Source of the DNA: Rhodothermales bacterium
GTDB taxonomy: Bacteria; Bacteroidota; Rhodothermia; Rhodothermales; JANQRZ01
Assembly (NCBI GenBank): GCA_965214485.1
Contig: CBDCBW010000015.1
Location: 338,000-401,999 of the forward strand
Direction: 5' to 3'
Length of the DNA stretch: 64,000 bases
This document shows positions 41,406 to 59,935 of this stretch, one piece after another (position 1 is the stretch's first letter; every line of letters starts with the position of its first letter). Position numbers and translations under genes: made by a program. The notes below the pieces were generated by a model. That model saw only the letters and a list, made by a program, of their open reading frames with translations. It had not been told where the DNA came from and made no database searches.

Positions 41406-42259
41406 GAGGCTGACTACGAATGGAGTGTGATGGGACGTTGAGCCCGTCCCCCTCGACCGATCGCACGCATGGCACACAGGCCGTACTCGACAGACCTCAC
41501 CGACGCCCAGTGGGCCATCGTCGCCCCGCTGCTGCCCCCGCCCCGCCCGCGCGGTCGCCGACCGACCGTCGACCGCCGCCGCGTCCTTGACGCCATCTTC
41601 TACCAAGCCAAGAACGCCTGCACATGGCGCGACCTCCCGCGCGACTTCCCCAACCACAAGACGGTCTACGCCTATTTCGAGCGGTGGCGCGACGACGGCA
41701 CCCTCGCCTCGGTCTACGAGGCGCTCCACCGCCGGTGGCGTCGGGAGAACGGGCGCGACGAGGACCCGTCGGCCGGGTCCGTCGACAGCCGGAGCGTCCA
41801 GGCTGCGCCCGAGGCCGCCGAGCGGGGGAAGGACCCGAACAAGAAAGTCGTCGGTCGCAAGCAGCACCTGTGCGTCGACACCGAGGGGCTCCCGATCTCG
41901 GTCAGGGTCACCGTCGCCTCAGCCAACGACAAGGCAGCGGCCTACGACCTCATCGACGCGGCGGCCGAGCGGAGCCCGCGGCTGAAGAAGCTGTGGGCCG
42001 ACGGGGCCTATGTGAGCGGCCCGCTCGCCGACCACGCCGCCGAGAAGGAGATCGACTTCGAAGTCGTGAGCCAGCAGAAGGGGCCGTTCGCGCCGATCCC
42101 GCGCCGGTGGGTCGTCGAGCGGACGTTCGCCTGGCTGAAGCGGTACCGCCGGCTGGTGCTCGACTTCGAGCGTCTCGCGCGGACGGTCGAGGCGTTCATC
42201 TACCTCGCGCTGACGCGGCTCCTGCTCAACCGCTTGGCCCCACGTTCATAGTCAGCCTC
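41406..42259 (+). mobile_element. IS5-family (IS427/IS1031-like) insertion sequence, 854 bp
   Basis: Imperfect terminal inverted repeats GAGGCTGACTACGAATG / CGTTCATAGTCAGCCTC. Flanked by a 3-bp direct repeat TCA (41403-41405 and 42260-42262). Single transposase ORF. Confidence 0.85.
41469..42251 (+). CDS. IS5-family DDE transposase
   Basis: 260 aa. N-terminal DLTDAQWAIVAPLLPP motif, DSRSVQA, LWADGAYVS, and the C-terminal VERTFAWLKRYRRL motif typical of the IS5/IS427 group. Confidence 0.9.
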   Translation: MAHRPYSTDLTDAQWAIVAPLLPPPRPRGRRPTVDRRRVLDAIFYQAKNACTWRDLPRDFPNHKTVYAYFERWRDDGTLASVYEALHRRWRRENGRDEDPSAGSVDSRSVQAAPEAAERGKDPNKKVVGRKQHLCVDTEGLPISVRVTVASANDKAAAYDLIDAAAERSPRLKKLWADGAYVSGPLADHAAEKEIDFEVVSQQKGPFAPIPRRWVVERTFAWLKRYRRLVLDFERLARTVEAFIYLALTRLLLNRLAPRS

Positions 42260-45680: not shown

Positions 45681-46878
45681 ATGCCCTTCCAGACTACCGA
45701 CCCGCCTATGGAGCGCGCCCGCCTCGTCGCCGCTCACCTCGACGGCCTCTACTCTGTCGCCGAACTCGCCGACCGCTTCTCGGTCTCCCGGCCCACCGTT
45801 TCTCGGTCTCCCGGCCCACCGTTTCTCGGTCTCCCGGCCCACCGTCTACAAGTGGATCGAGCGATACGCTGAGGGTGGCACCGAGGCGCTCCTCGACCGT
45901 AGCCGAGCCCGACATACCCAGCACGCTAAGACCGACCCGGAGGCGGAGCGCCTGCTCATTGAGGCCCGGCGGGCGCACCCCACCTGGGGCGCACGCAAGC
46001 TGCTGCCCTACCTCGCCCGGCGGCACGAGGGCGTCCGCTGGCCTGCGCCGTCTACGGCAGCGGCCATCCTCCAGCGCCACGGGCTGACGAAGACGCGCCG
46101 CAAGCGCCGGGTGCCGAAGCACCCCGGCTCCGCCCCGCTGGTGACGACGGCCCCCAACGAGGTCTGGACGGCCGACTTCAAAGGCCAGTTCAAGACCCGC
46201 GACGGGGTGTACTGCTACCCGCTGACGGTCTGCGACGCCCACTCGCGCTTTGTGCTCGGCTGCACCGGCCTGCCATCGGTCAAGCAGAAGGGCGCGAAGG
46301 ATCAGTTCGAGCGCCTGTTCCAGAAGTACGGCCTGCCCGAGGCGATCCGTAGCGACAACGGCGTACCGTTCGCCACGCAGGCGCTCTGCGGCCTGAGTCG
46401 GCTGAACGTGTGGGGGCTCAAGCTCGGAATCGGGCACGACCGGATCGCACCAGGGCAGCCTCAACAGAACGGACGCCACGAGCGGATGCACAAGACCCTG
46501 AAGGCCGAGACGGCACGACCACCCGAGCGTGAGATGGCACGGCAGCAGGTGCGCTTCGACGGCTGGCGCACGGAGTTCAACGACGAGCGCCCGCACGAGG
46601 CCCTCAGCTATGAGACTCCCGCTTCACTCTACGTGGCCTCGCCCCGCGCAATGCCCGACGTGCTCCCGAAGCCGGAGTACCCCGGCCACTTCGAGGTGCG
46701 CTGGCTCTCGAAGAGCGGCAACATCAAGTGGAAGCGGCAGCAGCTCTTCGTCAGTCAGGCGCTGGCGCACGAGTGGGTCGGGCTCGAGGAAGTCGCCGAC
46801 GGGGTGTGGAGCTTGTACTTCTACGACCGGCTGTTGGCGCGGCTTGACGAGCGCTCGGGGCTAAGGCTTCGGCCGTGA
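45681..46878 (+). pseudogene. IS481-family transposase (HTH + rve integrase core), frameshifted by a 23-bp tandem triplication
   Basis: MPFQTTDPPMERARLVAAHLDGLYSVAELADRFSVSRPTV (frame of 45681) continues as YKWIERYAEGGTEALLDRSR... only in the +1 frame after 45844. The core contains WTADF...D...RSDNGVPF...E. Confidence 0.8.
45776..45844 (+). repeat. Perfect 23-bp tandem repeat x3 (TTCTCGGTCTCCCGGCCCACCGT) inside the transposase gene
   Basis: Read directly at 45776-45798, 45799-45821 and 45822-45844. Two extra units add 46 bp, which shifts the frame by +1. Confidence 0.95.
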
Positions 46879-48674: not shown

Positions 48675-49727
48675 CTAAAATAGCGTAGTCTGCTCAACTG
48701 ACACTTCTGTTTCCGTTGCGCCGTCACCCGAAATAGCCGGGTCAAGCTCATCAAAGCGGAACCGGGAGCTTTCGAGGTACTCTTCCTCAAGCTCGAAGGC
48801 GAGGTAACGGCGGCCCATTTCCTGCGCCACCTCGCCGGTCGTGTTGCTCCCGGCGAAGGGATCAAGCACGAGATTACCTTCTTCAGTAGTAAGGCCGATG
48901 ATGAACTCGGGGAGCGCCTTCGGGAAGCGGGCAGGATGCCGCTTGGCTCCGGTCTCGCGGCACCGCCGCTGATAGCGGTCGTTGCTGGACGTGTTCGACG
49001 CCGCTACGACATTGACGGGGACGGGTTCACCGATCTCGTGCTCAAAGGCGTCATCCTCTAGGATGTTTGGCGGAATCGCGCCGCCGTTGTTCTTTCCGAA
49101 CTTGTCTGAGATGTCGTGTTCGCTCGGGCGGAGCTTCGGCGTGTAGCCGTTCTTCATCAGGTGCTTCTGCGCCTTGCTGTAAGGCTTCAGCACACTCCGG
49201 TTCGTCACTTTCCCGTCCTTCTCATCAACGACGGCAGAGGGGCGAAGCCACCAAACGGTGTTGACTGCATCCTTGACACGGATGCGGCGGACGGTCACCC
49301 ACTCGGCAGGCGTCGGCAGCTTGGCCGGATTGTACCAGTAGAGTTCTTGCGCGAGGAAGAAACCGAACTCCCCGCCTTCCTCGACTGGCTTGCACAGCCG
49401 AAGCAGAAACTCGTAATGGTAGAGGCTGCGATACGGTAGCCCTTTGATCCACGTACCGCCTAAGTCAATGACGAGCGAACCGTCGGGTTTAAGGATGCGC
49501 TTGAACTGCTCTGCAAAGGGTCTAAACCACTCGACGTACTTCTCAGACGTGACGTTGCCGTAGCCTTTCTGTCGGAGTAGCGCAAACGGCGGCGACGTGC
49601 AGATGAGGTCCACGGACTCATCGCCAAGCTGCTTCATCAGTTCCACGCTGTCGCCGAGGTAGGCCGCGCCAGCTTCCGTGGTGTAGTAAGGCTGGGCGTC
49701 GCCGAGGGTTGGGAGCGGCATGGGCAC
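48675..49727 (-). CDS. Beta-class DNA methyltransferase (N4-cytosine or N6-adenine); cassette 6
   Basis: 350 aa. Motif IV TSPPF lies near the N-terminus and motif I DPFAGSNTTG near the C-terminus. The first ATG is at 49721; the track start at 49727 is GTG. Confidence 0.85.
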   Translation of the reverse strand: MPMPLPTLGDAQPYYTTEAGAAYLGDSVELMKQLGDESVDLICTSPPFALLRQKGYGNVTSEKYVEWFRPFAEQFKRILKPDGSLVIDLGGTWIKGLPYRSLYHYEFLLRLCKPVEEGGEFGFFLAQELYWYNPAKLPTPAEWVTVRRIRVKDAVNTVWWLRPSAVVDEKDGKVTNRSVLKPYSKAQKHLMKNGYTPKLRPSEHDISDKFGKNNGGAIPPNILEDDAFEHEIGEPVPVNVVAASNTSSNDRYQRRCRETGAKRHPARFPKALPEFIIGLTTEEGNLVLDPFAGSNTTGEVAQEMGRRYLAFELEEEYLESSRFRFDELDPAISGDGATETEVSVEQTTLF

Positions 49728-49882: not shown

Positions 49883-50111
49883 CAGTTTTTCGCCAGAGGA
49901 CTTCAAGCCGGACGATTGGGTTTCGCAATCGGAGGCAGCGGACATCCGCGGCGTCTCTCGACAGGCGATCCACCAACTCGTGCAGAAGGGCCGGTTCCGC
50001 ACCTACGCTGTGGCCGGACGGACGCTCGTGCTACGGGAGGATGTGGTACAGTACGAACCGGACAAGGGAGGGCGTCCGCCCACCTCGGACGAGACCGAAC
50101 AAGGGGCATAG
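49869..50111 (+). CDS. Small HTH DNA-binding protein (excisionase/MerR-like HTH; candidate controller of the R-M unit); cassette 6
   Basis: 80 aa. WVSQSEAADIRGVSRQAIHQLVQKGRF reads as an HTH. The only in-frame start is TTG at 49869. Confidence 0.55.
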   Translation: MTKSSSFSPEDFKPDDWVSQSEAADIRGVSRQAIHQLVQKGRFRTYAVAGRTLVLREDVVQYEPDKGGRPPTSDETEQGA

Positions 50112-50112
50112 C

Positions 50113-51567
50113 GTGGCATCTGCAAAGAAGGAGAGCCAAATCCCCGTCGGCACGGGCTTCAGCCCCGATCTCGTGAGCCTGCCAGACTACGTTCGCGCCG
50201 CCGTTCGGCACAGCGGGGATTTGGACGCGCTGGAAGAAGCGCTCAACACACCGCCCGTCTGGATCGGCAAGAAGCTGAGGACGACGCGGCGCACCCGCCG
50301 CCACCCGATGGAAGCGGGGGCGCAGTACGGACTGCTCACGCCGGGGAGCTACGAAGCAACCGACCTCACGCGAAAGCTCGCCCGGCTGAGCGAGGACGAT
50401 TTGTACCAAGCGTTTGCGCGGCACATCGTTCTGAACGTCGGTGGTCTCCGTGTCGTGGAGGGAGCGCAGGAGATGCATCTTGACGGGCGGAAGGTCACCG
50501 GCGACTCGCTCGCGCAGTACCTCTCGGATCAGGGCTTCCGGGTCAGCGTCCACAACACCGCGATCAACACGATGCGGATGTGGCTGGCGAAAGCAAAGCT
50601 GTTCCCCGAAAGCGGGCGTGGGGCAGGAGCATGGCGACCGGACCCGGCGGTAAAGGAGCAACTTGTGGGGATGGACGACGATGCTATCGCGGCGCTGGCA
50701 GCATTGACGCCCGAACAGGTCGCGTTTGCTAAAACGCTCGCTCGCCTCGACCCGGACGACTGGACACCGGCGGCAGAGGTACGGGACCTTGCCGAAGCCG
50801 CTGAGGGCGTGCGGATTGGTCGCGGCTCGTTGCCGAACGAAGTGCTCCGTCCATTGGAGGCAGCGGGGCTGATCGAGTACCGAACGGGCGGCACCAGCAG
50901 CGGGAAGACTTCGGAGTTGAGAACGACGGAGGCGTTTCGGGCCGAGGTGCTGGAGCCGTTTCTGGAGCGGACGCTGAAAGACCTCGACCCGGCACTGACG
51001 GCCTACTACCGCACCCGGCCCGCCGACATTTACACTGCTCTCGGCTCGAAGGACAAGCACGAAAAGGGGCAGGCGCTTGAAGCGTTCGCCGTGATGGTGA
51101 TGCGTCTGCTCGGACTCCGGTTCGTCGGCTGGCGGCGGCGGGCCGAGGAAACCGGATACAGCGAAGTGGACGTGCTGATGGCCGGGCTGTTTGGGGCGGT
51201 GCCTACGACGTGGCAGGTGCAGTGCAAAAACACGCCGTCGGGACAGGTCCGCTTGGAGGATGTAGCGAAGGAAGTCGGGCTGATCCCGCTTATGCGGGCA
51301 ACGCACATCCTCGTGCTGGCAAACGCGCCGTTCACCCGCGATGCCCGGCGCTACGCCGACGCGATCATGCAGAACTCGTCGGTTACGGTTTTTCTGCTGG
51401 ACCGGACGGACTTCGAAGCAATTCGGGAGAGTCCCGCTAACCTGGGTCGCATTCTTCAGGCACAGGCCGAGCGCATCCGCGATCTCAAGATGGCAACGCC
51501 GGTATGGCGAGAAGGCGATGCACGCGGGGGACCGGATCAACCCTCGCTCGGTCTACCGCTGGGCTGA
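50113..51567 (+). CDS. Restriction endonuclease-like protein with a C-terminal Mrr-type PD-(D/E)xK domain; cassette 6
   Basis: Likely GTG start at 50113, just after the HTH gene stop. The C-terminus (GYSEVDVLMAG...WQVQCKNTPSGQV) fits the Mrr_cat D...(E/Q)xK pattern. Its stop abuts attC A8. Confidence 0.65.
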   Translation: MASAKKESQIPVGTGFSPDLVSLPDYVRAAVRHSGDLDALEEALNTPPVWIGKKLRTTRRTRRHPMEAGAQYGLLTPGSYEATDLTRKLARLSEDDLYQAFARHIVLNVGGLRVVEGAQEMHLDGRKVTGDSLAQYLSDQGFRVSVHNTAINTMRMWLAKAKLFPESGRGAGAWRPDPAVKEQLVGMDDDAIAALAALTPEQVAFAKTLARLDPDDWTPAAEVRDLAEAAEGVRIGRGSLPNEVLRPLEAAGLIEYRTGGTSSGKTSELRTTEAFRAEVLEPFLERTLKDLDPALTAYYRTRPADIYTALGSKDKHEKGQALEAFAVMVMRLLGLRFVGWRRRAEETGYSEVDVLMAGLFGAVPTTWQVQCKNTPSGQVRLEDVAKEVGLIPLMRATHILVLANAPFTRDARRYADAIMQNSSVTVFLLDRTDFEAIRESPANLGRILQAQAERIRDLKMATPVWREGDARGGPDQPSLGLPLG

Positions 51568-51713: not shown

Positions 51714-53066
51714 TTAGTTCAGAGTTGCCCTCAGCGAAGGGAAGAAGGCTGAAACCGGATTGTCTACAGAGTCCGGATCGTCAAGAGCTTTCCGGACCTG
51801 GCTGGCGATCTCAGACTTGTACACCTCAAGCCTTGGCACCAGTGCAAAGATGCTCGAGGTATCAATCTGAATCGTCCTCACTTGATTGAGGTCGAACGGA
51901 ATGTGGTCTGCTGCCCGCATGATCTGGACAGTCGGCAGACGACAGGCGTGCCTCAAGGCCAACTCGTAGAATACGTTGGGGTTATGATAAGACAGATCTG
52001 CGATGACTAACTTTGACTTGAGGATGTACTCGATGATCTGGGCCGTGATGATACCAGGCTCCGCGATATAGTCCGCACGCACCAGCTTCAGTCCAAACGG
52101 CTCCAAGGCGGGCTCGATAATAGAGCCCATGAAGAGATCTGAGTGCTGACGCTGCTCCGATTCCTCATCACCTATCGGCGTGATGTAGAAACAAATATGA
52201 TCGAAGTCAGCGCTTGAACTGGCGGGTTTGGCGCGACCTGTCGCAACTACTCCGTCAGGGGCCGGGCGTCCACCCCGGCTTGGGGCACGAACGGCGCGCT
52301 CCAGTCCTTCAAGGGCGTGGTCGAACGTCAAGAGGCGTTCAGCACCTGAAAGAGTTCTGAGAAGGCCCAGATACCGAGCGTTGACGATGAATATGTCAAC
52401 GCACTCGTTCGATCTCTGCTCTGACATACCGGTCTCACGTAACGCGTCGCGCAAAAGAGAACTCGACGGCATTCGTGAGCCTGCAAATGTCTCATAAAGC
52501 AACTTGAACGGCTCGACACCCATTATCCCAAGCTCAATCCGAGCCTTAGTCCGCTCGTGCTCGGACACGTCGTCGCTGGTCGCCTTGTCACCTTCGGGAG
52601 TCAACTGAAGATGCTCCGCTTTATGACTCCCCTTCACAAGACCGTACTTGCTCGCGTTCGTGAGAAGCTGCCGACTCTGACTACTCTCAGGAGACTTGCC
52701 GAACTCATCGAACAAGGTGAGACGACGGACCTGGTTGCTTCCTGCAGTCTCTTGGATGAACTGCGCAAAGCTCACGACCTCCTCAAAGGAGGCATTAGGG
52801 TAGGGTAGCGGCGTTCGCTGTCTGGGCTTCTTTGCGGCAGGCTTCTTCTTATCAGCAGGCTTCTTCTTCCGTGTCGTCTTCTTCCCAGCATTGGCCTTTG
52901 GCTTCCGGCTGGCGGGTTTCTTAGCCGTAGCCTTTTGAGCCGACTCCGCCTTCTTCGCTGGCTCCGCTGCCTCAGTTGACTGTTCGCCCTCCGACATGGG
53001 CTCGGCGTCAGAGGACTTCGACTCTGATTCCCCGAAGAGGTTGGTGCCATTCGCTCCTACTTCCAT
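51714..53066 (-). CDS. Three-part protein: Lys/Pro/Ala-rich basic tail, two winged-helix-like repeats, and a C-terminal nucleoside 2-deoxyribosyltransferase/TIR-like domain; cassette 5
   Basis: 450 aa. Basic tail KKPASRKPKANAGKKTTRKKKPADKKKPAAKKPRQR. C-terminus CFYITPIGDEESEQ...VRADYI...LVIADLSYHNPNVFYELALRHA matches the NDT-like pattern (recall-level). Confidence 0.6.
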   Translation of the reverse strand: MEVGANGTNLFGESESKSSDAEPMSEGEQSTEAAEPAKKAESAQKATAKKPASRKPKANAGKKTTRKKKPADKKKPAAKKPRQRTPLPYPNASFEEVVSFAQFIQETAGSNQVRRLTLFDEFGKSPESSQSRQLLTNASKYGLVKGSHKAEHLQLTPEGDKATSDDVSEHERTKARIELGIMGVEPFKLLYETFAGSRMPSSSLLRDALRETGMSEQRSNECVDIFIVNARYLGLLRTLSGAERLLTFDHALEGLERAVRAPSRGGRPAPDGVVATGRAKPASSSADFDHICFYITPIGDEESEQRQHSDLFMGSIIEPALEPFGLKLVRADYIAEPGIITAQIIEYILKSKLVIADLSYHNPNVFYELALRHACRLPTVQIMRAADHIPFDLNQVRTIQIDTSSIFALVPRLEVYKSEIASQVRKALDDPDSVDNPVSAFFPSLRATLN

Positions 53067-53628: not shown

Positions 53629-53759
53629 CGTGCTAACAGAGGGCCGCTCACCCGCGCAGGGCAAACAGCACAATGGTCGAACGAAGCTACGGAAGCGCAG
53701 GCGTTCGGACGAGCCGAGAACGCTCACGCCCTGCGTCGGCGTGCAGCGGCGGGTTAGCC
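53629..53759 (-). repeat. attC-like site A10
   Basis: Boxes TGCTAAC ... GTTAGCC. Arms GGGCCGCTCACCC / GTGCAGCGGCGG. Confidence 0.8.
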
Positions 53760-54569
53760 GGACCCGTGGGGCACGGCAGTTGGGGACAGCATCTCTTGAA
53801 CCTCCTCAATCGTGTACGGTGGAGACTTCCGGTGGATTACGGCGTGGCAGTTCGGACAGACTGGACGGAGGTCGTCTACCGGATCTACCTCGTACCGCTC
53901 GCCCAACTCTGACACCGGGCGGAGGTGATGGACGTGGATGAAGCCCTCGGTGGCGGCACCGTAGGCACGGGCGAAGTCGAACCCGCAGACGATGCACGCA
54001 ACGCCGTAGTAGGCAAGGCACCGCCGCCGTGCCTCCGGGTTGCGCTCGTACACGTTGAGGCTGACGGCGCGCGGGGTGCCCTCGTACAGCGGGCGCGGCT
54101 CAGCGCTCCGGTTAGAATCCGGCGGGGAGGCCGAGCCGATGACGGAACCCCACTCCCGTTCCAGCGCTTCCGCAACGTGAGGCGGGATCGAGGTACCCGA
54201 CGCCTGGGTGTTCCAGTAGACGTCAGCGAACTCGGGCGCGTCCAGCCGCTCGCGCGGGAGGATCGGATCAGTCTCGGGATCTTGCAGCGCGTCGAACTCC
54301 ACTTCGACGAACCAGCCTGGCGTGTCGCGCTCCGGGTCCCAATGATCGTCTTGGTACGACGGCGTTGTGACGGAGCCGCTGGCGATGATCCCGCGTGGTT
54401 CGAGACCCTGGCGGAGCAAGAAAACGCGGTCGCCCTGCTCGATCCGTTTCGTGTTTCCGCAACTCCAACGACGGACCAATCGCCCGCGCTCGGCAACCTC
54501 GTTTGCGTCGGCGGCGAGGCCGTCCCACTTCCACCGCTTCGGGTTCCACGTCAGGAGATACGTCGCCAT
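53754..54569 (-). CDS. PUA-like (EVE/ASCH-type) domain fused to an HNH nuclease (candidate modification-dependent restriction enzyme); cassette 3
   Basis: 271 aa. N-terminus YLLTWNPKRWKW...GDRVFLLRQG..GIIASG. C-terminal HNH CIVCGFDF...FIHVHHLRPV...CPNCHAVIH. Its TAA stop lies inside the GGCTAAC box of A10. Confidence 0.75.
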   Translation of the reverse strand: MATYLLTWNPKRWKWDGLAADANEVAERGRLVRRWSCGNTKRIEQGDRVFLLRQGLEPRGIIASGSVTTPSYQDDHWDPERDTPGWFVEVEFDALQDPETDPILPRERLDAPEFADVYWNTQASGTSIPPHVAEALEREWGSVIGSASPPDSNRSAEPRPLYEGTPRAVSLNVYERNPEARRRCLAYYGVACIVCGFDFARAYGAATEGFIHVHHLRPVSELGERYEVDPVDDLRPVCPNCHAVIHRKSPPYTIEEVQEMLSPTAVPHGSG

Positions 54570-54590
54570 AGCACAGCGATTCGGAGGGTA

Positions 54591-54720
54591 CGGCTAACAG
54601 TTGACCGCTCAGCCGCGTGGGGCAAACAGCACGGAAGTTGAACGAAGCGAAGGTAGCGCCGACGCCAGAACGAGCCGAGAACGCTCACGCCTCACGTCGG
54701 CCTGCAGCGGTGGGTTATGT
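54591..54720 (-). repeat. attC-like site A11
   Basis: Boxes GGCTAAC ... GTTATGT. Arms GACCGCTCAGCC / CTGCAGCGGTGG. Confidence 0.75.
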
Positions 54721-54745
54721 GGCGTACAGTAGATGTCCACTCATT

Positions 54746-55441
54746 CTAATGTCCGAACCGATACGAACCTAGGTCGATCAGGTCTAACTCCTCGATTCGA
54801 ATCGCCATCGCCTCGTAGGAGACGCCGAAGAGTTCAGCAATTGGCTTCACGGGGTTCCCGGCGAACATTCCAGCCTTTGCCAAGCGAAGAGAGAGTGGCC
54901 GCATATCGGGACTTGTAGCTAGCAGAGGTCCCAAATCTTTAATCCCGAGGGAGAATGCCGAGTCGTTGGATACGATAAACCGATCAGATCCGAAGATCGC
55001 TCGGAATGCCTCTCTCATCACGGACTCGGGCATCAAGAAGTATGCGGCGAACTTGTCGGCTTCATACTCCACTTGTGGGCGGTGGCCCCGAATCAGCGAG
55101 CCATCAAGGCCACGATCTCTGAACTGTTTGTCTGCTTTGTGGAGAATCGCATGACCAAGCTCATGCGCCGCCGTGAAAGCCTGGACCACTGGTACGAACT
55201 GCTCTGATACGGCAGCGTATCGCTTCGGTTTGTCGATGAACCCAGCCACCTCGGTTACGTCGCCACCATCGATGATCTGTCCCAAGAATGGAGCGCGCTC
55301 AAAAGTGTAGCCGAAAGCATGAAATGCGGAGGGCGGATCAAGAACATCGATGACGCCTCTGTCGGTACCGTCTGTCCATATGTCTGACCTATTTCTCCAA
55401 AGGTCGTTCTGGACGTTTTTAGCGATGGAGTGAACGACCAC
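54746..55441 (-). CDS. ImmA/IrrE-family zinc metallopeptidase; cassette 2
   Basis: 231 aa. HEXXH motif AAHELGHAILH followed by EYEADKFAAYFLMP. The GTG start is embedded in the IS200-like end hairpin, so the true N-terminus is uncertain. Confidence 0.75.
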   Translation of the reverse strand: MVVHSIAKNVQNDLWRNRSDIWTDGTDRGVIDVLDPPSAFHAFGYTFERAPFLGQIIDGGDVTEVAGFIDKPKRYAAVSEQFVPVVQAFTAAHELGHAILHKADKQFRDRGLDGSLIRGHRPQVEYEADKFAAYFLMPESVMREAFRAIFGSDRFIVSNDSAFSLGIKDLGPLLATSPDMRPLSLRLAKAGMFAGNPVKPIAELFGVSYEAMAIRIEELDLIDLGSYRFGH

Positions 55442-56020
55442 CCCCAGAGGGGGTGGCTTCTGTATTCCTCACGGCGACCCCTGAAAGGGGATCGCGCGCT
55501 CACGAGAACAGATCGTAGTTGGCCTGCTGCCGCTCCTGTTTCTTCTCCTCCTGCTCCTGATACTGAACGTAGCGCCGGATCAGATCCTCGTTCAAACCCA
55601 CCGTGTTCACAAAGTACCCTCGCGACCAGAAATGATTGCCCCAATACGGCTTCTTCCGCAGACGGGGGTAGCTCTTGAACAGCTTGATCGCCAGCTTCCC
55701 CTTCAGAAAGCCCATGAACTGCGAGACCGCCAGCTTCGGTGGGATCGAGCAGAGCAGGTGGATGTGGTCGGGCTGCACGCTTAGCTCCATCACCTCGACC
55801 TGCTTCCACGCACACAGCACCCGGATGTCGTGCTCGACGGCCTCTTTGATAGCCCCTTCGAGCACACGGTAGCGGTACTTCGGCGTCCAGACGATGTGGT
55901 AGTTGCACTGGTAGACCGTGTGCGTGAGCTTTCGATACTTCGCGTTGCGCTCTGCCATGCTGCCAGTTTACGGCATAGCCGAACACACATCACCACCGTC
56001 AAAGACGGTGGGTTGCTACG
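55440..56020 (-). mobile_element. IS200/IS605-family element (tnpA only; ends approximate) inside cassette 2
   Basis: The Y1 transposase gene is flanked by subterminal hairpins: CCACCGTCAAAGACGGTGG at 55994-56012, and GACCCCTGAAAGGGGATC and CCACCCCCAGAGGGGGTGG at 55437-55492. Confidence 0.7.
55500..55958 (-). CDS. tnpA: IS200/IS605-family Y1 transposase TnpA
   Basis: 152 aa. YHIVWTPKYRYRVL, the HUH motif (DHIHLL) and the catalytic-Tyr region WSRGYFVNTVG. Confidence 0.9.
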   Translation of the reverse strand: MAERNAKYRKLTHTVYQCNYHIVWTPKYRYRVLEGAIKEAVEHDIRVLCAWKQVEVMELSVQPDHIHLLCSIPPKLAVSQFMGFLKGKLAIKLFKSYPRLRKKPYWGNHFWSRGYFVNTVGLNEDLIRRYVQYQEQEEKKQERQQANYDLFS

Positions 56021-56769
56021 CTAAACTCAATCTCCGAGTCAGTATACTTCGAGTCGATTAGACTCTTGTCTCGAATGAGGTTGATGTCCAATCCGAAGCC
56101 GTCATTCGAAGCTTGTGCGCCAGACCTCAACTCCAAGACTCTGGTTTGCAGTTCAGTGCCGATGAGGCGAGCGCGTTCCTCCAACTTTTCCGCGCGAGCT
56201 AGCAACTCCACGATCTCGCTCTCCCCGTTGAAGCTCTTGAGGTTGAGGTACACGATCGAAATAGCGCCGGTCGCTCCAGACAGGGCGGAGTCGATAGCCA
56301 CCTCCGAGTCGCCTCGGGCAGCCTTAAACCCAATGTCGAATACGGTGACGGCGTGTTCGGCGAGCGCCAAACAGCTCTCAGCTATTTCAAGAGGAATTTC
56401 ACTGGCAACATGCAACTCATCCAAAGCCTGCTTCCCATACCTCCATCTCTGGGCGGGATCGGTCTCGGCGTTTCTTGCAAGTCGCGCCTTGATGACCTTG
56501 TCAAACTGAACTGAGTCCTCGTCGAACGCTTCCCACAGCTTGGGCTCGATGTCATTGGTGATGGACTCCTCGATACTGTTAAGCTCGGCTACGGCTTCTT
56601 CATGTTCATGGCCGCCACGTCGCTTCGAAAGATCGATGACGGTTTTCGTCAGAGCGCACGAGATCAGGCCGAGCAGCGCGGCTGCGCTACCCGAACCGGG
56701 CTTGTGCCCGCCAGCGCCGAACTTCCTCAGAAGCTCGTCTAGGGGAAGCTTTGCTAGATCGACTGCCAT
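55999..56769 (-). CDS. Cyclodeaminase/cyclohydrolase (FTCD C-terminal) family protein; cassette 2. Its C-terminus may be altered by the IS200 insertion.
   Basis: 256 aa. N-terminus LPLDELLRKFGAGGHKPGSGSAAALLGLISCALTKTVIDLS matches the FTCD_C pattern (PGGGSAAAL). The last 7 codons run into the IS end. Confidence 0.6.
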   Translation of the reverse strand: MAVDLAKLPLDELLRKFGAGGHKPGSGSAAALLGLISCALTKTVIDLSKRRGGHEHEEAVAELNSIEESITNDIEPKLWEAFDEDSVQFDKVIKARLARNAETDPAQRWRYGKQALDELHVASEIPLEIAESCLALAEHAVTVFDIGFKAARGDSEVAIDSALSGATGAISIVYLNLKSFNGESEIVELLARAEKLEERARLIGTELQTRVLELRSGAQASNDGFGLDINLIRDKSLIDSKYTDSEIEFSVATHRL

Positions 56770-56837
56770 GCCTCTCTGATCTGTGAACCTCGGGAGCTAA
56801 CGCACGCATCCGTAGCAGGTTGCCTTGTGCTCCCGCT

Positions 56838-56970
56838 AGCCACATAACAGACGGCCGCTCAACCGCGAAGGGCAAACGGCATGATGGTGAATCAGAGCGC
56901 AGGATACGCCGACGGTCGGACAACGCGAAAACGCTGACGCCCTTCGTCGGCTTGCAGCGGCGGGTTATGT
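56838..56970 (-). repeat. attC-like site A12
   Basis: Boxes ACATAAC ... GTTATGT. Arms GGCCGCTCAACC / TTGCAGCGGCGG. Confidence 0.8.
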
Positions 56971-57540
56971 GCACGGCTTGTAGCGCGCGGTGATTACGAT
57001 CTCCTGATCGAAGCGAAAACGACCGATCCCTCGGCTCCGCATCCTCATCCGCATCTCGGAGGTCAAGGGAATACCGTTTACTTGCTCGAACGTGATCTCG
57101 GACTCCACCGGCTCCATCAGGAAGCCCGCTAGTCCCGACAGCTCCGGCGAATGCACGATGACACTCTTCAACTCGGCTGGGTCCTTCTGAAACGTGAAGT
57201 CGGCCCCTGGCACCTCAGCCTCAGCCTCCGAGGGTTTCAGGCGCACCGCGCGGACCCGTAGCTCGTTCGACTGGTGGCTAGGAAGCTCGTGGCGCTTGAA
57301 CTCGTCGCCGCTCAACATGGGGAGGAGGTCTTCTTCCTCCGCGTTGGCTTCGGGATCGTCCAGCCGCTGCTCTCCTTTCTCGACCGAGGACGCAGGACCG
57401 AAAGCGCCGTGCTTGATCTGCTTGGATTCGCTGACGGCACATACGCCCCGGACGGCTTCCTGACGACGCTCGAACTGAGCGACGACTTCGGCGATGATCT
57501 GGCGGGCGCCGCCGCTCAGCAGGGTGTCAGTTTGGCTCAT
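56965..57540 (-). CDS. Orphan acidic protein; cassette 1 (junction-proximal)
   Basis: 191 aa from ATG 57540 (MSQTDTLLSGG), 10 nt after the terminal GTTATGTGCAC box. Its TAA stop lies inside the ACATAAC box of A12. Confidence 0.6.
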   Translation of the reverse strand: MSQTDTLLSGGARQIIAEVVAQFERRQEAVRGVCAVSESKQIKHGAFGPASSVEKGEQRLDDPEANAEEEDLLPMLSGDEFKRHELPSHQSNELRVRAVRLKPSEAEAEVPGADFTFQKDPAELKSVIVHSPELSGLAGFLMEPVESEITFEQVNGIPLTSEMRMRMRSRGIGRFRFDQEIVITARYKPCT

Positions 57541-57546
57541 AGGTGA

Positions 57547-57557
57547 GTGCACATAAC
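57547..57557 (-). other. Terminal cassette junction (half-site GTGCACATAAC; minus strand GTTATGTGCAC)
   Basis: Perfect 11-bp reverse complement of the right box of A12 (GTTATGTGCAC at 56964). No attC arms follow it, so this is the candidate attI-side junction of the first cassette. Confidence 0.6.
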
Positions 57558-57714
57558 CAGTGATTGAGCGGAAGCGCGCGGCATAGCGTGTGTCGGCGAA
57601 AGCCGAACCGTTCGGCATAGCATAACGCGATCTGCAAAAAGACGCAAGACTACTGCCTTTCCTCCGTGCTATGCCGACTCAGGCCCGCGCTATGCCGAAA
57701 CAAGGTCGCCCTCG

Positions 57715-58746
57715 CTATTCGTTCCACCCGGAGCGTGGCTGCGGGTCGCGGCGCTCGCCGTAGGGGTGAGTCGCGGTCTGCGTCTCCTCGCCCTGCTCCT
57801 CCTTGCCGGCACCCTCGTCGGTGGAGGGCGTCGCGGCCTCGCGTACGACCTTCTCGGTCTCGACGACCCGCACGGCGTCCTCGTCCGGGCGGATGTGTGC
57901 GCCATAGCGCTGCGCCCAGATTTGCGTAAACTCGGCCCCGACGAGCAGGATCAGAGCCGTGTAGTAGATCCACACGAGGATCACGACGATGGAGCCGGCA
58001 GCCCCGAACGCCTCGCCGGGGTCCGAGCGCCCGAGGTAGAACCCGATCAGAAACTTCCCGAGCACGAACAGCAGCGCCGTCACGAGACCGCCCACCCACA
58101 CGTCGCGCCACGTGATCTGCGCGTCGGGCAGCACCTTGAAGATCGCGGCGAAGAGGAACGTGAACAAAGCGAGGCTGACGGCGATTTCGCCGACCCACGC
58201 GAACGCCGCCCCGACCGGCCCGAGCGAGGCCTCGATCTGACCGAACAGCCCCGAGAGCAGCGCGCTCGCCGCGAGCGAGACGATGAGGAAGAACGCGATC
58301 GTGAGCACCATCCCGAACGAGAGCACGCGCTTCGTGAGGAAGTTGACGACCCCGCTCCCGGATTCGTCGGGCCTGACCTCCCAGGCGCGGTTGAGCGACT
58401 GCTGAAGCTGGACGAACGCCCCCGTCGCGCCGAAGAGCAGCGCGAGCAGCCCGAACAGTTTGCCCACCAGCGATCCCCCGCCGAGGTCGCCCGCGTTCTC
58501 GATCATCGTCCGAATCTCCTCTGCGCCCCGCTCGCCGAGGAGGCCGCCGACCTGCCCCGTGATCTGCTCCTGCACGGTCTCCGCCCCGAAGACCGCGCCG
58601 GCTACGCCGACGAGGATGGCGAGCAGCGGCGGGAGCGAGAGCAGCGTGTAGTAGGCAATGGCCGCGCTCATGCTGGTGCAGTTGTCGTCGGCGACCTCTT
58701 GGCCGGTCTGTTTGACGAGGGCGAGGGCGTTGGAGAACGAAATCAT
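57715..58746 (-). CDS. YihY/BrkB-family membrane protein
   Basis: 343 aa from ATG 58744-58746 (MISFSNALALVKQTG). SAAIAYYTLLSLPPLL and six TM segments are typical of YihY. Confidence 0.8.
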   Translation of the reverse strand: MISFSNALALVKQTGQEVADDNCTSMSAAIAYYTLLSLPPLLAILVGVAGAVFGAETVQEQITGQVGGLLGERGAEEIRTMIENAGDLGGGSLVGKLFGLLALLFGATGAFVQLQQSLNRAWEVRPDESGSGVVNFLTKRVLSFGMVLTIAFFLIVSLAASALLSGLFGQIEASLGPVGAAFAWVGEIAVSLALFTFLFAAIFKVLPDAQITWRDVWVGGLVTALLFVLGKFLIGFYLGRSDPGEAFGAAGSIVVILVWIYYTALILLVGAEFTQIWAQRYGAHIRPDEDAVRVVETEKVVREAATPSTDEGAGKEEQGEETQTATHPYGERRDPQPRSGWNE

Positions 58747-58842
58747 GGCGGGGGAGGCGAAGGGGAGGGAACGTGGACGCTCCGAACTCTTTTCTACAGA
58801 CGTGAATCTAAGCACCCCTACCGACGCGCTTCCGTTCCGCCG

Positions 58843-59166
58843 ATGCCCCGCCTCTCCGACGACGGCACGACCGTTACCCTCGACCTCCACGGCGCGCACG
58901 TGGACGACGCGCTCGACCTCGCCTGCCGCACGGCGGCGCTCGCCGCCCGGCGCGGGCGCTCGGCGCTCCGCCTTATCCACGGCACCTCGACCTCCGACCC
59001 GTGCGCGCGCAACCGCACCATCAAGCACGCCCTCTACGACCTCCTCGACGACGGCGACCTGCCCGAAGCACAAAGCGCCGTCCGGCTCGGAGGCGAGACG
59101 CTCGTTAGCCTTCCGCTCGGCGCACGCCCCGATGCCACCCCGATCCGCCTTTCCGATGTCTCCTGA
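58843..59166 (+). CDS. Smr-domain protein
   Basis: 107 aa (MPRLSDDGTTVTLDLHGAHVDDALD...LRLIHGTS). LDLHG...IHG is the Smr signature. Confidence 0.7.
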   Translation: MPRLSDDGTTVTLDLHGAHVDDALDLACRTAALAARRGRSALRLIHGTSTSDPCARNRTIKHALYDLLDDGDLPEAQSAVRLGGETLVSLPLGARPDATPIRLSDVS

Positions 59167-59248
59167 GGACGGTGGACAGTCAACTCCGGCACGAGGGCAC
59201 GCTGCGCCACGGTCTCGGTAGCTTTGCAGGTTTCCTCCCCCTCCTCCC

Positions 59249-59935
59249 ATGCGTCCACGCATCGGCATCACGACCTCGCTCAACGACGGCGAGCAGCGGC
59301 TCGACCGGCGCTACGTGCTCGCAGTGGAGCGCGCGGGCGGCCTGCCGCTCATCGTCCCGATGCTGGAGACGGACGCGGCGGCGGCGGCCTTCGCCGCGCT
59401 GCTCGGCGGCCTCGTGGTGACCGGCGGCCCGGCGATCACCCGGGGCCTGCTCGGCGAACTTCCGCCGGAGATTGAAGAAACAGCGGAGGCCCGTCTCGCG
59501 TCTGATACGCGGCTTCTTTCCTCGTTCCTCGCGGCTCGACGTCCCGTGCTCGGCATCTGCTACGGTATGCAACTCGGCAACGCCCTCGCGGGCGGGACGC
59601 TCTATGCCGACGTGCAGGCACAGCTCGGCGGCGCGGCGGTCCACAGCCAAGAGCGCGGCGCGACGGAGCACTCCGTCCGCGTCGAGCCCGGCACGTACCT
59701 GAGCCGGCTCCTCCCCGAACACGTTGCCGTCAACACCCGCCACCTGCAGGCGGTGGAGCGGCCCGGCGCGGGCCTCCGCGTGGCAGCCCGCGCGCCGGAC
59801 GGCGTCGTCGAGGCCGTCGAGAGCGAAGACGGGCGGTTCGTCGGCGTGCAGTGGCACCCGGAGCGGATGGACGCTGCGATGGAGCCGCTCTTCCGTGATC
59901 TCGTTGAGAGGGCGGCGCGGGCTTCACCGGTGTGA
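59249..59935 (+). CDS. Class I glutamine amidotransferase / gamma-glutamyl-GABA hydrolase (peptidase C26) family
   Basis: 228 aa. Nucleophile motif LGICYGMQL and VGVQWHPE. Confidence 0.85.
   Translation: MRPRIGITTSLNDGEQRLDRRYVLAVERAGGLPLIVPMLETDAAAAAFAALLGGLVVTGGPAITRGLLGELPPEIEETAEARLASDTRLLSSFLAARRPVLGICYGMQLGNALAGGTLYADVQAQLGGAAVHSQERGATEHSVRVEPGTYLSRLLPEHVAVNTRHLQAVERPGAGLRVAARAPDGVVEAVESEDGRFVGVQWHPERMDAAMEPLFRDLVERAARASPV

Follow-up and report, generated by a model that had tools for sequence, protein, structure and literature searches.

In a 64,000-nucleotide stretch of Rhodothermales bacterium contig CBDCBW010000015.1, referred to here as the window, two neighbouring minus-strand open reading frames (ORFs) flank an IS200-like insertion sequence (IS); one encodes a protein with the C-terminal domain of formiminotransferase-cyclodeaminase (FTCD_C), the other an ImmA/IrrE-type metallopeptidase of the M78 family. 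We find that these ORFs are almost certainly the two parts of one gene, and that there appear to be two genes because the IS has inserted within a single linker-joined coding sequence.

The three ORFs and the motifs quoted for them are as described in a first-pass annotation of this DNA: ORF1 (55999..56769, 256 amino acids) contains GHKPGSGSAAALLGLISCALTKTV, ORF2 (54746..55441, 231 amino acids) contains AAHELGHAILH...EYEADKFAAYFLMP, and tnpA (55500..55958, 152 amino acids) lies between them. Their proposed identities are borne out by Pfam matches, all above the cut-offs, to FTCD_C for ORF1 (E=2e-27; 96.5 bits, cut-off 24.5), Peptidase_M78 for ORF2 (E=1.2e-14; 54.6 bits, cut-off 22), and Y1_Tnp for tnpA (E=2.7e-40). 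In that annotation the outer ORFs formed a two-gene cyclodeaminase/peptidase module with the IS exactly between the genes. We arrive at a different gene structure, in which removal of the IS yields one ORF of 475 codons whose closest homologues are themselves single fusion proteins.

The IS200 element and the gene it interrupts

The ends of the IS were defined by alignment with another copy. A look-up of the exact TnpA sequence shows the same protein encoded in an unrelated metagenomic contig (L001), and the window and this contig are 100% identical over 601 nucleotides, comprising the 596-nucleotide element and the pentanucleotide TTGAG preceding it, and are unrelated beyond. The element thus occupies 55430..56025 on the minus strand, opening with TTTAGCG at 56025 and closing with CGTTCAC at 55430, and TTGAG (56026..56030) lies directly 5′ of its left end in the window as it does in L001, although the assignment of this target rests on two IS copies. 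Terminal inverted repeats, a target duplication and tnpB are all absent, and tnpA is the single ORF within the 596 nucleotides, encoding a Y1 (HUH) transposase that scores 147 bits against the NCBIfam transpos_IS200 model (NF033573; cut-off 55). Subterminal hairpins are present at both ends, CCACCGTC-TTT-GACGGTGG at 55993..56011, 14 nucleotides inside the left end (DNA fold z=-3.65), and CCACCCCC-TCT-GGGGGTGG at 55438..55456, eight nucleotides from the end of the IS (z=-3.73), and each folds better than 200 of 200 shuffled sequences; the left-end hairpin with its T-rich tract is a terminator-like match on the gene strand. A second copy was not found within the window, and an exact-match scan of the genome contigs with the IS left end returned nothing. 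The element is an ordinary member of the IS200 group that has inserted 3′ of TTGAG, and shares with the tnpA-only members of the IS200/IS605 family a lone Y1 HUH transposase, a length of about 0.6 kb, subterminal hairpins of which the left one is terminator-like, the lack of inverted repeats and target duplication, and insertion 3′ of a short specific sequence; we see nothing unusual in it.

Excision of 56025..55430 in silico leaves an open frame of 1428 nucleotides, in which codon 248 of ORF1 is joined in frame to the S-I-A-K of ORF2. The 5′ part of the native gene (56026..56769, codons 1–248, minus strand) has a GAGAGG Shine-Dalgarno sequence five nucleotides ahead of its ATG and encodes the FTCD_C-like domain (approximately residues 10–222) and the start of a conserved linker; the 3′ part (54746..55429, codons 249–475 and the stop) encodes what remains of the linker, the M78 metallopeptidase and, at the C-terminus, a helical subdomain, as identified by Pfam, PADLOC and Protein Data Bank (PDB) matches. 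The IS therefore interrupts a single reading frame: it follows codon 248 and falls in the linker between the two domains. At the junctions the first-pass annotation was right that the GTG start of ORF2 lies in an IS hairpin, specifically within the right-end hairpin, on its 3′ arm, but the IS contributes eight codons and a stop to the end of ORF1 (FSVATHRL, with the stop in the loop of the left-end hairpin), not the seven codons it had counted. The first four codons of ORF2 (GTG-V-V-H) are likewise IS sequence.

The restored junction reads SEIE/SIAKNVQ and aligns without gaps to SDIEAIAKNIQ in homologues; in an alignment of 35 sequences SEIESIAKNVQNDLW is similarly gap-free against SDIEAIAKNIQNDLW and its equivalents. 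A search with ORF1 alone already retrieved proteins with both Pfam domains, and the reconstructed protein has 689 homologue matches, the best 120 of which are nearly all 460–480 amino acids long, contain both PF04961 and PF06114, and are 38–84% identical to it over about 98–100% of the length. The possibility of a single fusion gene, which the first-pass annotation had raised, is thus confirmed both by the in-silico deletion and by the collinearity of over 100 homologues. P0121, the closest relative, is an uninterrupted protein of 473 amino acids that is 84% identical over 100% of the length, and its gene sits between two integron attC sites of the same type as those in the window, on a related contig (L002). 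The ratio of non-synonymous to synonymous substitution rates (dN/dS) relative to P0121 is 0.078 overall, 0.084 in the N-terminal half and 0.066 in the C-terminal half; both halves have evolved under purifying selection and contain no further lesions. These low ratios in both halves, and the existence of a second IS copy that is 100% identical, suggest that the insertion is recent.

Two other accounts of the split deserve consideration. One is that the two-gene arrangement is native, with a cyclodeaminase-fold protein and a separate peptidase acting as partners and the IS occupying the spacer between their genes. Each half does have stand-alone counterparts, of about 223 amino acids for the FTCD_C-like protein and about 230–350 for the peptidase; however, excision leaves no spacer, stop or start, the frame that results is collinear with single-chain homologues, the end of ORF1 and the start of ORF2 are IS sequence, and the stand-alone modules are not neighbours in any of the 44 loci at which we find them (0 of 36 peptidase-only and 0 of 8 FTCD_C-only loci). 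We consider it scarcely credible. The other is that the IS-separated halves are both still made and are functional. The break after residue 248 falls in a linker predicted with low confidence (predicted local distance difference test, pLDDT, about 70), natural FTCD_C-only proteins end at the equivalent of about residue 225, natural peptidase-only proteins begin near a conserved Y-S-x-x-D-I-E motif just ahead of the break, and both halves are undamaged. A very recent insertion predicts intact halves equally well, though, and we found no sigma-70-like promoter between 54500 and 57100; moreover, the only start available to the 3′ half is the GTG in the right-end stem, which has no appropriately spaced Shine-Dalgarno sequence. 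We therefore regard a functional split as unlikely. Because the left-end hairpin is terminator-like, no promoter was found and the GTG is buried in the right-end stem, the gene is most likely inactivated in this Rhodothermales genome. For annotation, it follows that the database genes named 'cyclodeaminase' and 'ImmA/IrrE peptidase' at this locus are one IS-disrupted gene; insertion of an IS200 element in an integron cassette is the ordinary part of these observations, and the gene family is the interesting part.

The two domains of the reconstructed protein

An AlphaFold2 model built on the family alignment (mean pLDDT 88) has a five-helix N-terminal domain (approximately residues 10–222), a lower-confidence linker (approximately 222–250), and an alpha/beta peptidase domain with a helical subdomain after it. 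The N-terminal domain superimposes on the methenyltetrahydrofolate cyclohydrolase FchA (7vg4) with a target-normalised TM-score of 0.89–0.91 and also matches TM1560 (1o5h) and rat FTCD (1tt9); against PDB sequences the family profile matches FchA at 1e-20 and FTCD at 2e-10. It scores just 57 bits against the NCBIfam FchA equivalog model (NF045657), far below the cut-off of 275; NCBIfam otherwise gives only sub-threshold FchA and antitoxin-like matches, and PADLOC has no model for the domain.

In common with FchA, the cyclodeaminase domain of FTCD (1tt9/2pfd) and TM1560, the domain is all-helical with a glycine-rich loop in the same place. The sequence of that loop differs, however, being an invariant HKPGSGS at residues 22–28 (56686..56706, minus strand) where FchA has PTPGGGG, as seen in a hidden Markov model alignment to 7vg4. 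The invariant polar set in the 35-sequence alignment comprises G20, H22, (K23), P24-G-S-G-S28, R152-G-D-S155 and L175-N-L177; in canonical FchA the corresponding positions read PTPGGGG and ISDAG, and only D154 and N176 are common to the family and the canonical enzymes. Judged by its sequence motifs, GxHKPGSGSAAA, RGDS and LNL, the domain is a distinct subfamily of the FTCD_C fold. The subfamily further differs from FchA and FTCD in having the RGDS motif as an invariant addition, in being fused to a protease or to dihydrofolate reductase (DHFR), and in its distribution, which is accessory and not core-metabolic.

The FTCD_C-like subfamily contains 102 clusters at 50% identity (E<=1e-30). About half of the best 150 listed matches are fusions, and many of the others are stand-alone proteins of about 223 amino acids; the latter are found in defence or cassette-like surroundings, which include a Lysobacter array of small co-directional ORFs, a Burkholderia plasmid, positions beside an MmeI-type restriction-modification system, a LexA-like gene and an AAA_15/DUF4276 pair, and positions beside ORC-CDC6-like and HD-CE genes. 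Two proteins, P0359 and P0469 (L087:3337-4524), have DHFR at the N-terminus fused to the FTCD_C-like domain, with the HxPGSGSAAA, RGDS and LNL motifs all retained. These DHFR fusions are the best evidence, if indirect, that the FTCD_C-like domain may deal with folates. We also note that in P0356 and P0376 the domain is fused to a C-terminal domain of about 170 amino acids that is of no known type.

The C-terminal domain is, by its sequence, an M78 zinc peptidase of the ImmA/IrrE/CapP type with its HExxH...E site intact, and proteolytic activity is predicted. The zinc-binding and catalytic HELGH motif (H337, E338, H341; 55151..55165, minus strand) and the third zinc ligand E369 (55067-55069, minus strand) are invariant in the 35 aligned family members, and their spacing matches that of H96/E97/H100/E129 in CapP. 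The best PADLOC match of ORF2 is to capP (E=8.7e-17), and CapP (7t5t) is also the best peptidase match of the family profile in the PDB (6.5e-10), followed by IrrE structures at 2e-5 and 9e-5. No match to a GAF domain was found; the chain ends about 80 helical residues past the peptidase core.

The characterised M78 enzymes ImmA, IrrE/PprI and CapP are site-specific protein endopeptidases, which are held latent until a stress signal, received through an accessory domain, leads to cleavage of a repressor (PMC10904395; PMC12828697). CapP and IrrE consist of the peptidase, a helix-turn-helix (HTH)-like linker and, at the C-terminus, a GAF domain, and are activated by single-stranded DNA (bioRxiv 10.1101/2022.04.27.489752). 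The reconstructed protein resembles CapP of the CapH/CapP pair, which regulates cyclic-oligonucleotide-based (CBASS) and other defence operons, in its HExxH core, in having the Glu ligand about 32 residues further on and then a helical subdomain, and in being found among defence genes. It differs in that CapP has a C-terminal GAF domain, responds to single-stranded DNA and is invariably accompanied by an HTH repressor, CapH, that it cleaves, whereas the present protein lacks GAF, has the FTCD_C-like domain at its N-terminus and has no conserved HTH partner. A similar comparison holds for IrrE/PprI-DdrO of Deinococcus and ImmA-ImmR of ICEBs1 and phages (M78, COG2856; PMC10904395, PMC12828697): the peptidase family, the catalytic motif and the broad scheme in which a signal controls a latent protease are shared, but those are two-gene systems that respond to DNA damage and have an Xre-family substrate encoded next door, while the gene described here is solitary and has a folate-enzyme-like domain appended.

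Family distribution and proposed function

A scan of species-representative genomes yielded 79 loci, 32 of which encode the full fusion in one ORF. The taxa with fusions include, within the Bacteroidota, Flavobacteriaceae, Cyclobacteriaceae, Mucilaginibacter and Larkinella, and beyond it Planctomycetaceae, Halioglobus, Burkholderiales/Oxalobacteraceae and Brevundimonas. One Cyclobacteriaceae metagenome-assembled genome (MAG; contig JAHBUC010000001.1) has two paralogous full-length fusions about 83 kb apart (L010 and L020). By tblastn the gene has no match in 50,697 phage genome records, and 72,556 plasmid records likewise lack the full fusion and contain a single FTCD_C-only match (Burkholderia p2); Foldseek searches of viral structures gave nothing significant. 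The family is absent from PADLOC v2, and the literature that we searched contains no description of a protein combining FTCD_C and M78 domains, nor of an M78 peptidase in nrd operons, in agreement with the first-pass annotation, in which the pairing was not recognised as a described module. Homologues are annotated just as 'cyclodeaminase/cyclohydrolase family protein', a label that hides the protease fusion in hundreds of them.

All-against-all clustering of flanking ORFs identified no gene cluster common to 34 fusion loci. Among the nearest neighbours of these genes (two on either side, 119 proteins in all), the recurrent families have defence or mobile-element functions: LmuB/SMC_N occurs three times, PglX, TRIP13, AbiLi and AriA twice each, and Eco57I, N6_Mtase, IetA, type II and type IIG restriction-modification proteins, Sa_NUDIX, BsuBI/PstI and RteC are also present; altogether the 119 proteins match 366 PADLOC models. 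An HTH_3 domain is present in only three of the 119, and there is thus no conserved adjacent Xre/HTH repressor. The lack of an Xre partner, which had been remarked upon for the window and which we confirm for its cassette, is therefore a property of the family and not of this locus. The family is widespread, conserved and partner-less, and we infer that its members are M78 signalling proteases with a new sensor and without a cognate repressor.

The peptidase module, which starts at the conserved Y-S-x-x-D-I-E linker, also occurs without FTCD_C in a large sister family of proteins of 230–350 amino acids (L039-L075; for example L041:7842-8696 and L044:7650-8681). Short N-terminal N[PQ]YA[HY][LMI] motifs, such as LQNPYAHLDD-G-FSA, are present in one to three copies in 22 of 36 of these proteins, and in an Akkermansiaceae MAG (L049:7089-8750) the module is fused to an N-terminal Ser/Thr kinase-like domain (HRDLKPQN..DFG) and encoded directly downstream of a ribonucleotide reductase (RNR) gene. 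The neighbours of the sister family are not defence-rich, with 138 proteins matching 109 PADLOC models; they include RNR large subunits (six), RNR small subunits (three), TSCPD (three) and ATP-cone (two) proteins, and thymidylate synthase. At eight loci, in Beta- and Gammaproteobacteria and Verrucomicrobiota, the peptidase gene is on the same strand as, and no more than 103 nucleotides after, the class II RNR gene nrdJ or its TSCPD gene. Separately, RAYT/IS200-like Y1 transposase genes encoding proteins of about 175 amino acids lie 90–250 nucleotides downstream of the peptidase-only genes at four loci (L040, L041, L042 and L068), constituting a second association of this peptidase gene family with Y1 transposases.

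The likeliest of the mechanisms considered for the intact protein is that of a latent protease similar to IrrE and CapP, in which the GAF sensor would be replaced by the FTCD_C-like domain in the sensor position. The regulatory position would be occupied across the two families by a variable N-terminal module, either an FTCD_C-like domain, a kinase, or short linear motifs. The signal would probably be a folate or a metabolite of one-carbon or deoxynucleoside triphosphate (dNTP) supply, or else a protein perturbing that pathway, since DHFR is fused to this same domain and sister peptidases are encoded in RNR operons, including the link to thymidylate synthase. The protease would respond by cleaving a target protein of the host or of a phage, one that is presumably encoded elsewhere as no partner gene is conserved. 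Residence in defence islands and cassette arrays suggests that the role may be an accessory one in stress or anti-phage responses. We offer the sensor-protease mechanism tentatively when it is judged by itself, by analogy with characterised M78 enzymes; a blended judgement spanning both the IS-split gene and this mechanism comes out as probable. More speculative again is the specific proposal of a self-contained, single-gene immune or stress sensor, which would couple proteolytic signalling to folate and dNTP supply: its folate-type domain would respond when one-carbon/thymidylate metabolism is taken over by a phage or stressed by antifolates or lack of thymine, and would unleash the M78 protease on a target in the host or phage; the RNR-operon sister family with its NPYAHL motifs would then be a housekeeping relative and the source from which the protease was recruited.

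Several observations weigh against these proposals. The association with defence islands is qualitative, being drawn from aggregate family counts with a naive ORF caller and not from a genome-wide enrichment statistic, and none of the 34 fusion loci has the gene beside RNR or folate genes. The predicted template-modelling score of the AlphaFold2 model (pTM 0.56) neither demonstrates nor excludes an inter-domain interface. The strictly conserved polar residues H22, K23, R152, D154, S155 and N176 would be as compatible with catalysis as with the binding of a ligand, and the occurrence of the FTCD_C-like domain by itself in the same kinds of locus implies that it has an independent function and may be more than a sensor.

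We considered three alternatives for what the intact protein does. It might be a bifunctional folate enzyme, the FTCD_C-like domain binding folylpolyglutamate and the metallohydrolase cutting the glutamyl tail or the p-aminobenzoate-glutamate bond, with folate depletion or remodelling as the result; such a protein might, for instance, be an effector of abortive infection or play a part in antifolate resistance. FTCD-type domains, as in FTCD and FchA, act on folates, and dfr genes are classic integron cassettes; DHFR fusions of exactly this subfamily and the absence of a protein partner also speak for such an enzyme. However, all characterised M78 enzymes are site-specific protein endopeptidases (PMC10904395; PMC12828697), and the coupling of the same peptidase module to short linear motifs or to a Ser/Thr kinase fits protein-level signalling better; an enzyme of this type is improbable. 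We give equally little credence to a CapP-like transcriptional switch, cleaving an Xre/CapH-type repressor that controls an adjacent defence operon and whose own position is not conserved. CapP is the closest peptidase match in both PADLOC and the PDB, and a few neighbours are HTH_3 proteins (the three noted above) or components of CBASS systems (two TRIP13, and Sa_NUDIX); but an HTH neighbour is present at no more than three of the 34 loci and in neither the window cassette nor the L002 cassette, the GAF domain that CapP and IrrE have is missing from the protein, and an integron cassette moves as a single gene. Very improbable is a role in ordinary one-carbon metabolism, with ORF1 as a housekeeping methenyltetrahydrofolate cyclohydrolase or formiminotetrahydrofolate cyclodeaminase. 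The Pfam FTCD_C match, the FchA-like fold and the database name 'formiminotetrahydrofolate cyclodeaminase' would favour it, yet the score lies far below the FchA cut-off, the canonical PGGG loop is replaced by HKPGSGS, the domain is fused to a protease, and the gene sits in cassette arrays and defence islands and not in folate or histidine-utilisation operons.

If the more speculative proposal of a single-gene immune or stress sensor is correct, folate sensing would for the first time be connected with immunity through an M78 protease. The current picture of ImmA, IrrE and CapP proteases is of two-gene switches that DNA damage controls, and a partner-less family would broaden the range of signals that such proteases read; the DHFR fusions and RNR-operon sisters suggest that this may extend to nucleotide supply, a major battleground between phages and their hosts. 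The uninterrupted P0121 gene and the in-silico reconstruction are both directly usable as constructs.

The integron-type cassette array

The first-pass annotation referred to the ORFs as a cassette, and this is literally the case. A repeat of about 123 nucleotides is present in 12 copies between 42421 and 56974 (approximately 42.4–57.0 kb) of the window, its spacing defining a series of cassettes on the minus strand. On that strand the copies begin ..TAACCCGCCGCTGCA.. and finish ..GAGCGGCC..CTGTTA(T/G).., and when aligned they fold as a long imperfect stem with bulged bases, with inverse-core TAAC and core GTTA boxes; the consensus fold of the 12-site alignment has 18 pairs, seven of which show compensatory changes, and scores against a covariance model range from 91 to 151 bits across the array. 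This is the anatomy of integron attC sites.

The split gene occupies the cassette at 54598..56847 (minus strand); its first bases are the TT of the core GTTATGT (56848-56842), and its last is the G of GTTAGCC (54598-54592). It is bracketed by the attC of the upstream cassette (56837..56971, minus strand; 136 bits), whose long-range stem is imperfect, contains bulged bases and shows compensatory changes and whose R' core forms the start of the split-gene cassette, and by its own attC (54587..54721, minus strand; 135.9 bits), identified by the alignment and consensus fold. The cassette is 2250 nucleotides long, equal to the attC repeat spacing, and 1654 nucleotides without the IS; the IS-free form thus has one ORF of 1428 nucleotides within 1654, the usual one-ORF pattern of integron cassettes. 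The covariance model finds sites in the window and in L002 and none in the other 72 loci, which is uninformative as to cassette status in distant taxa.

An IS4/5 DDE transposase gene (41469-42251) bounds the array at one end and a BrkB-family membrane protein gene (57715-59283) at the other. An integron integrase was not found among the large ORFs scanned beside the array, and the integrase may lie outside the window, or the array may be a cluster of attC sites without one. In comparison with described defence-encoding integron cassettes (bioRxiv 10.1101/2024.07.02.601719), the arrangement is alike in that a single promoterless ORF is followed by an attC site and in that genes for TIR-like, EVE-HNH and methylase proteins occupy adjoining cassettes; it is unlike them in that there is no integrase in the window and in that a defence role of the present family is putative.

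The P0121 cassette contains an additional ORF (L002:5411-6016) encoding a predicted membrane protein of 201 amino acids with its own HELGH motif, which overlaps the start of the P0121 gene by 16 nucleotides; the window cassette has a 78-nucleotide leader in this position. We considered this ORF as a candidate for the missing partner and rejected it, as the window cassette lacks it and so do the other loci.

Neighbouring cassettes have a defence-like appearance (51714-53066, 53754-54569, 48675-49727 and 49903-51540). The products encoded in neighbouring cassettes include a 450-amino-acid protein whose C-terminus resembles TIR effectors (PADLOC, 3.3e-9), an EVE and HNH protein that is a candidate modified-base-directed nuclease, and an N6/N4 DNA methylase, the gene for which lies beside an ORF encoding 545 amino acids without a Pfam match. 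The first ORF of the array (56965-57618) encodes 217 amino acids without Pfam, PADLOC or NCBIfam matches, and its TAA stop lies within the inverse-core TAAC of the next attC; upstream of this ORF we recognised neither an attC nor an attI. Within one of the cassettes, at 45768-45845, a 23-nucleotide unit, GCC(G/C)ACCG(C/T)TTCTCGGTCTCCCG, is repeated three times in tandem.

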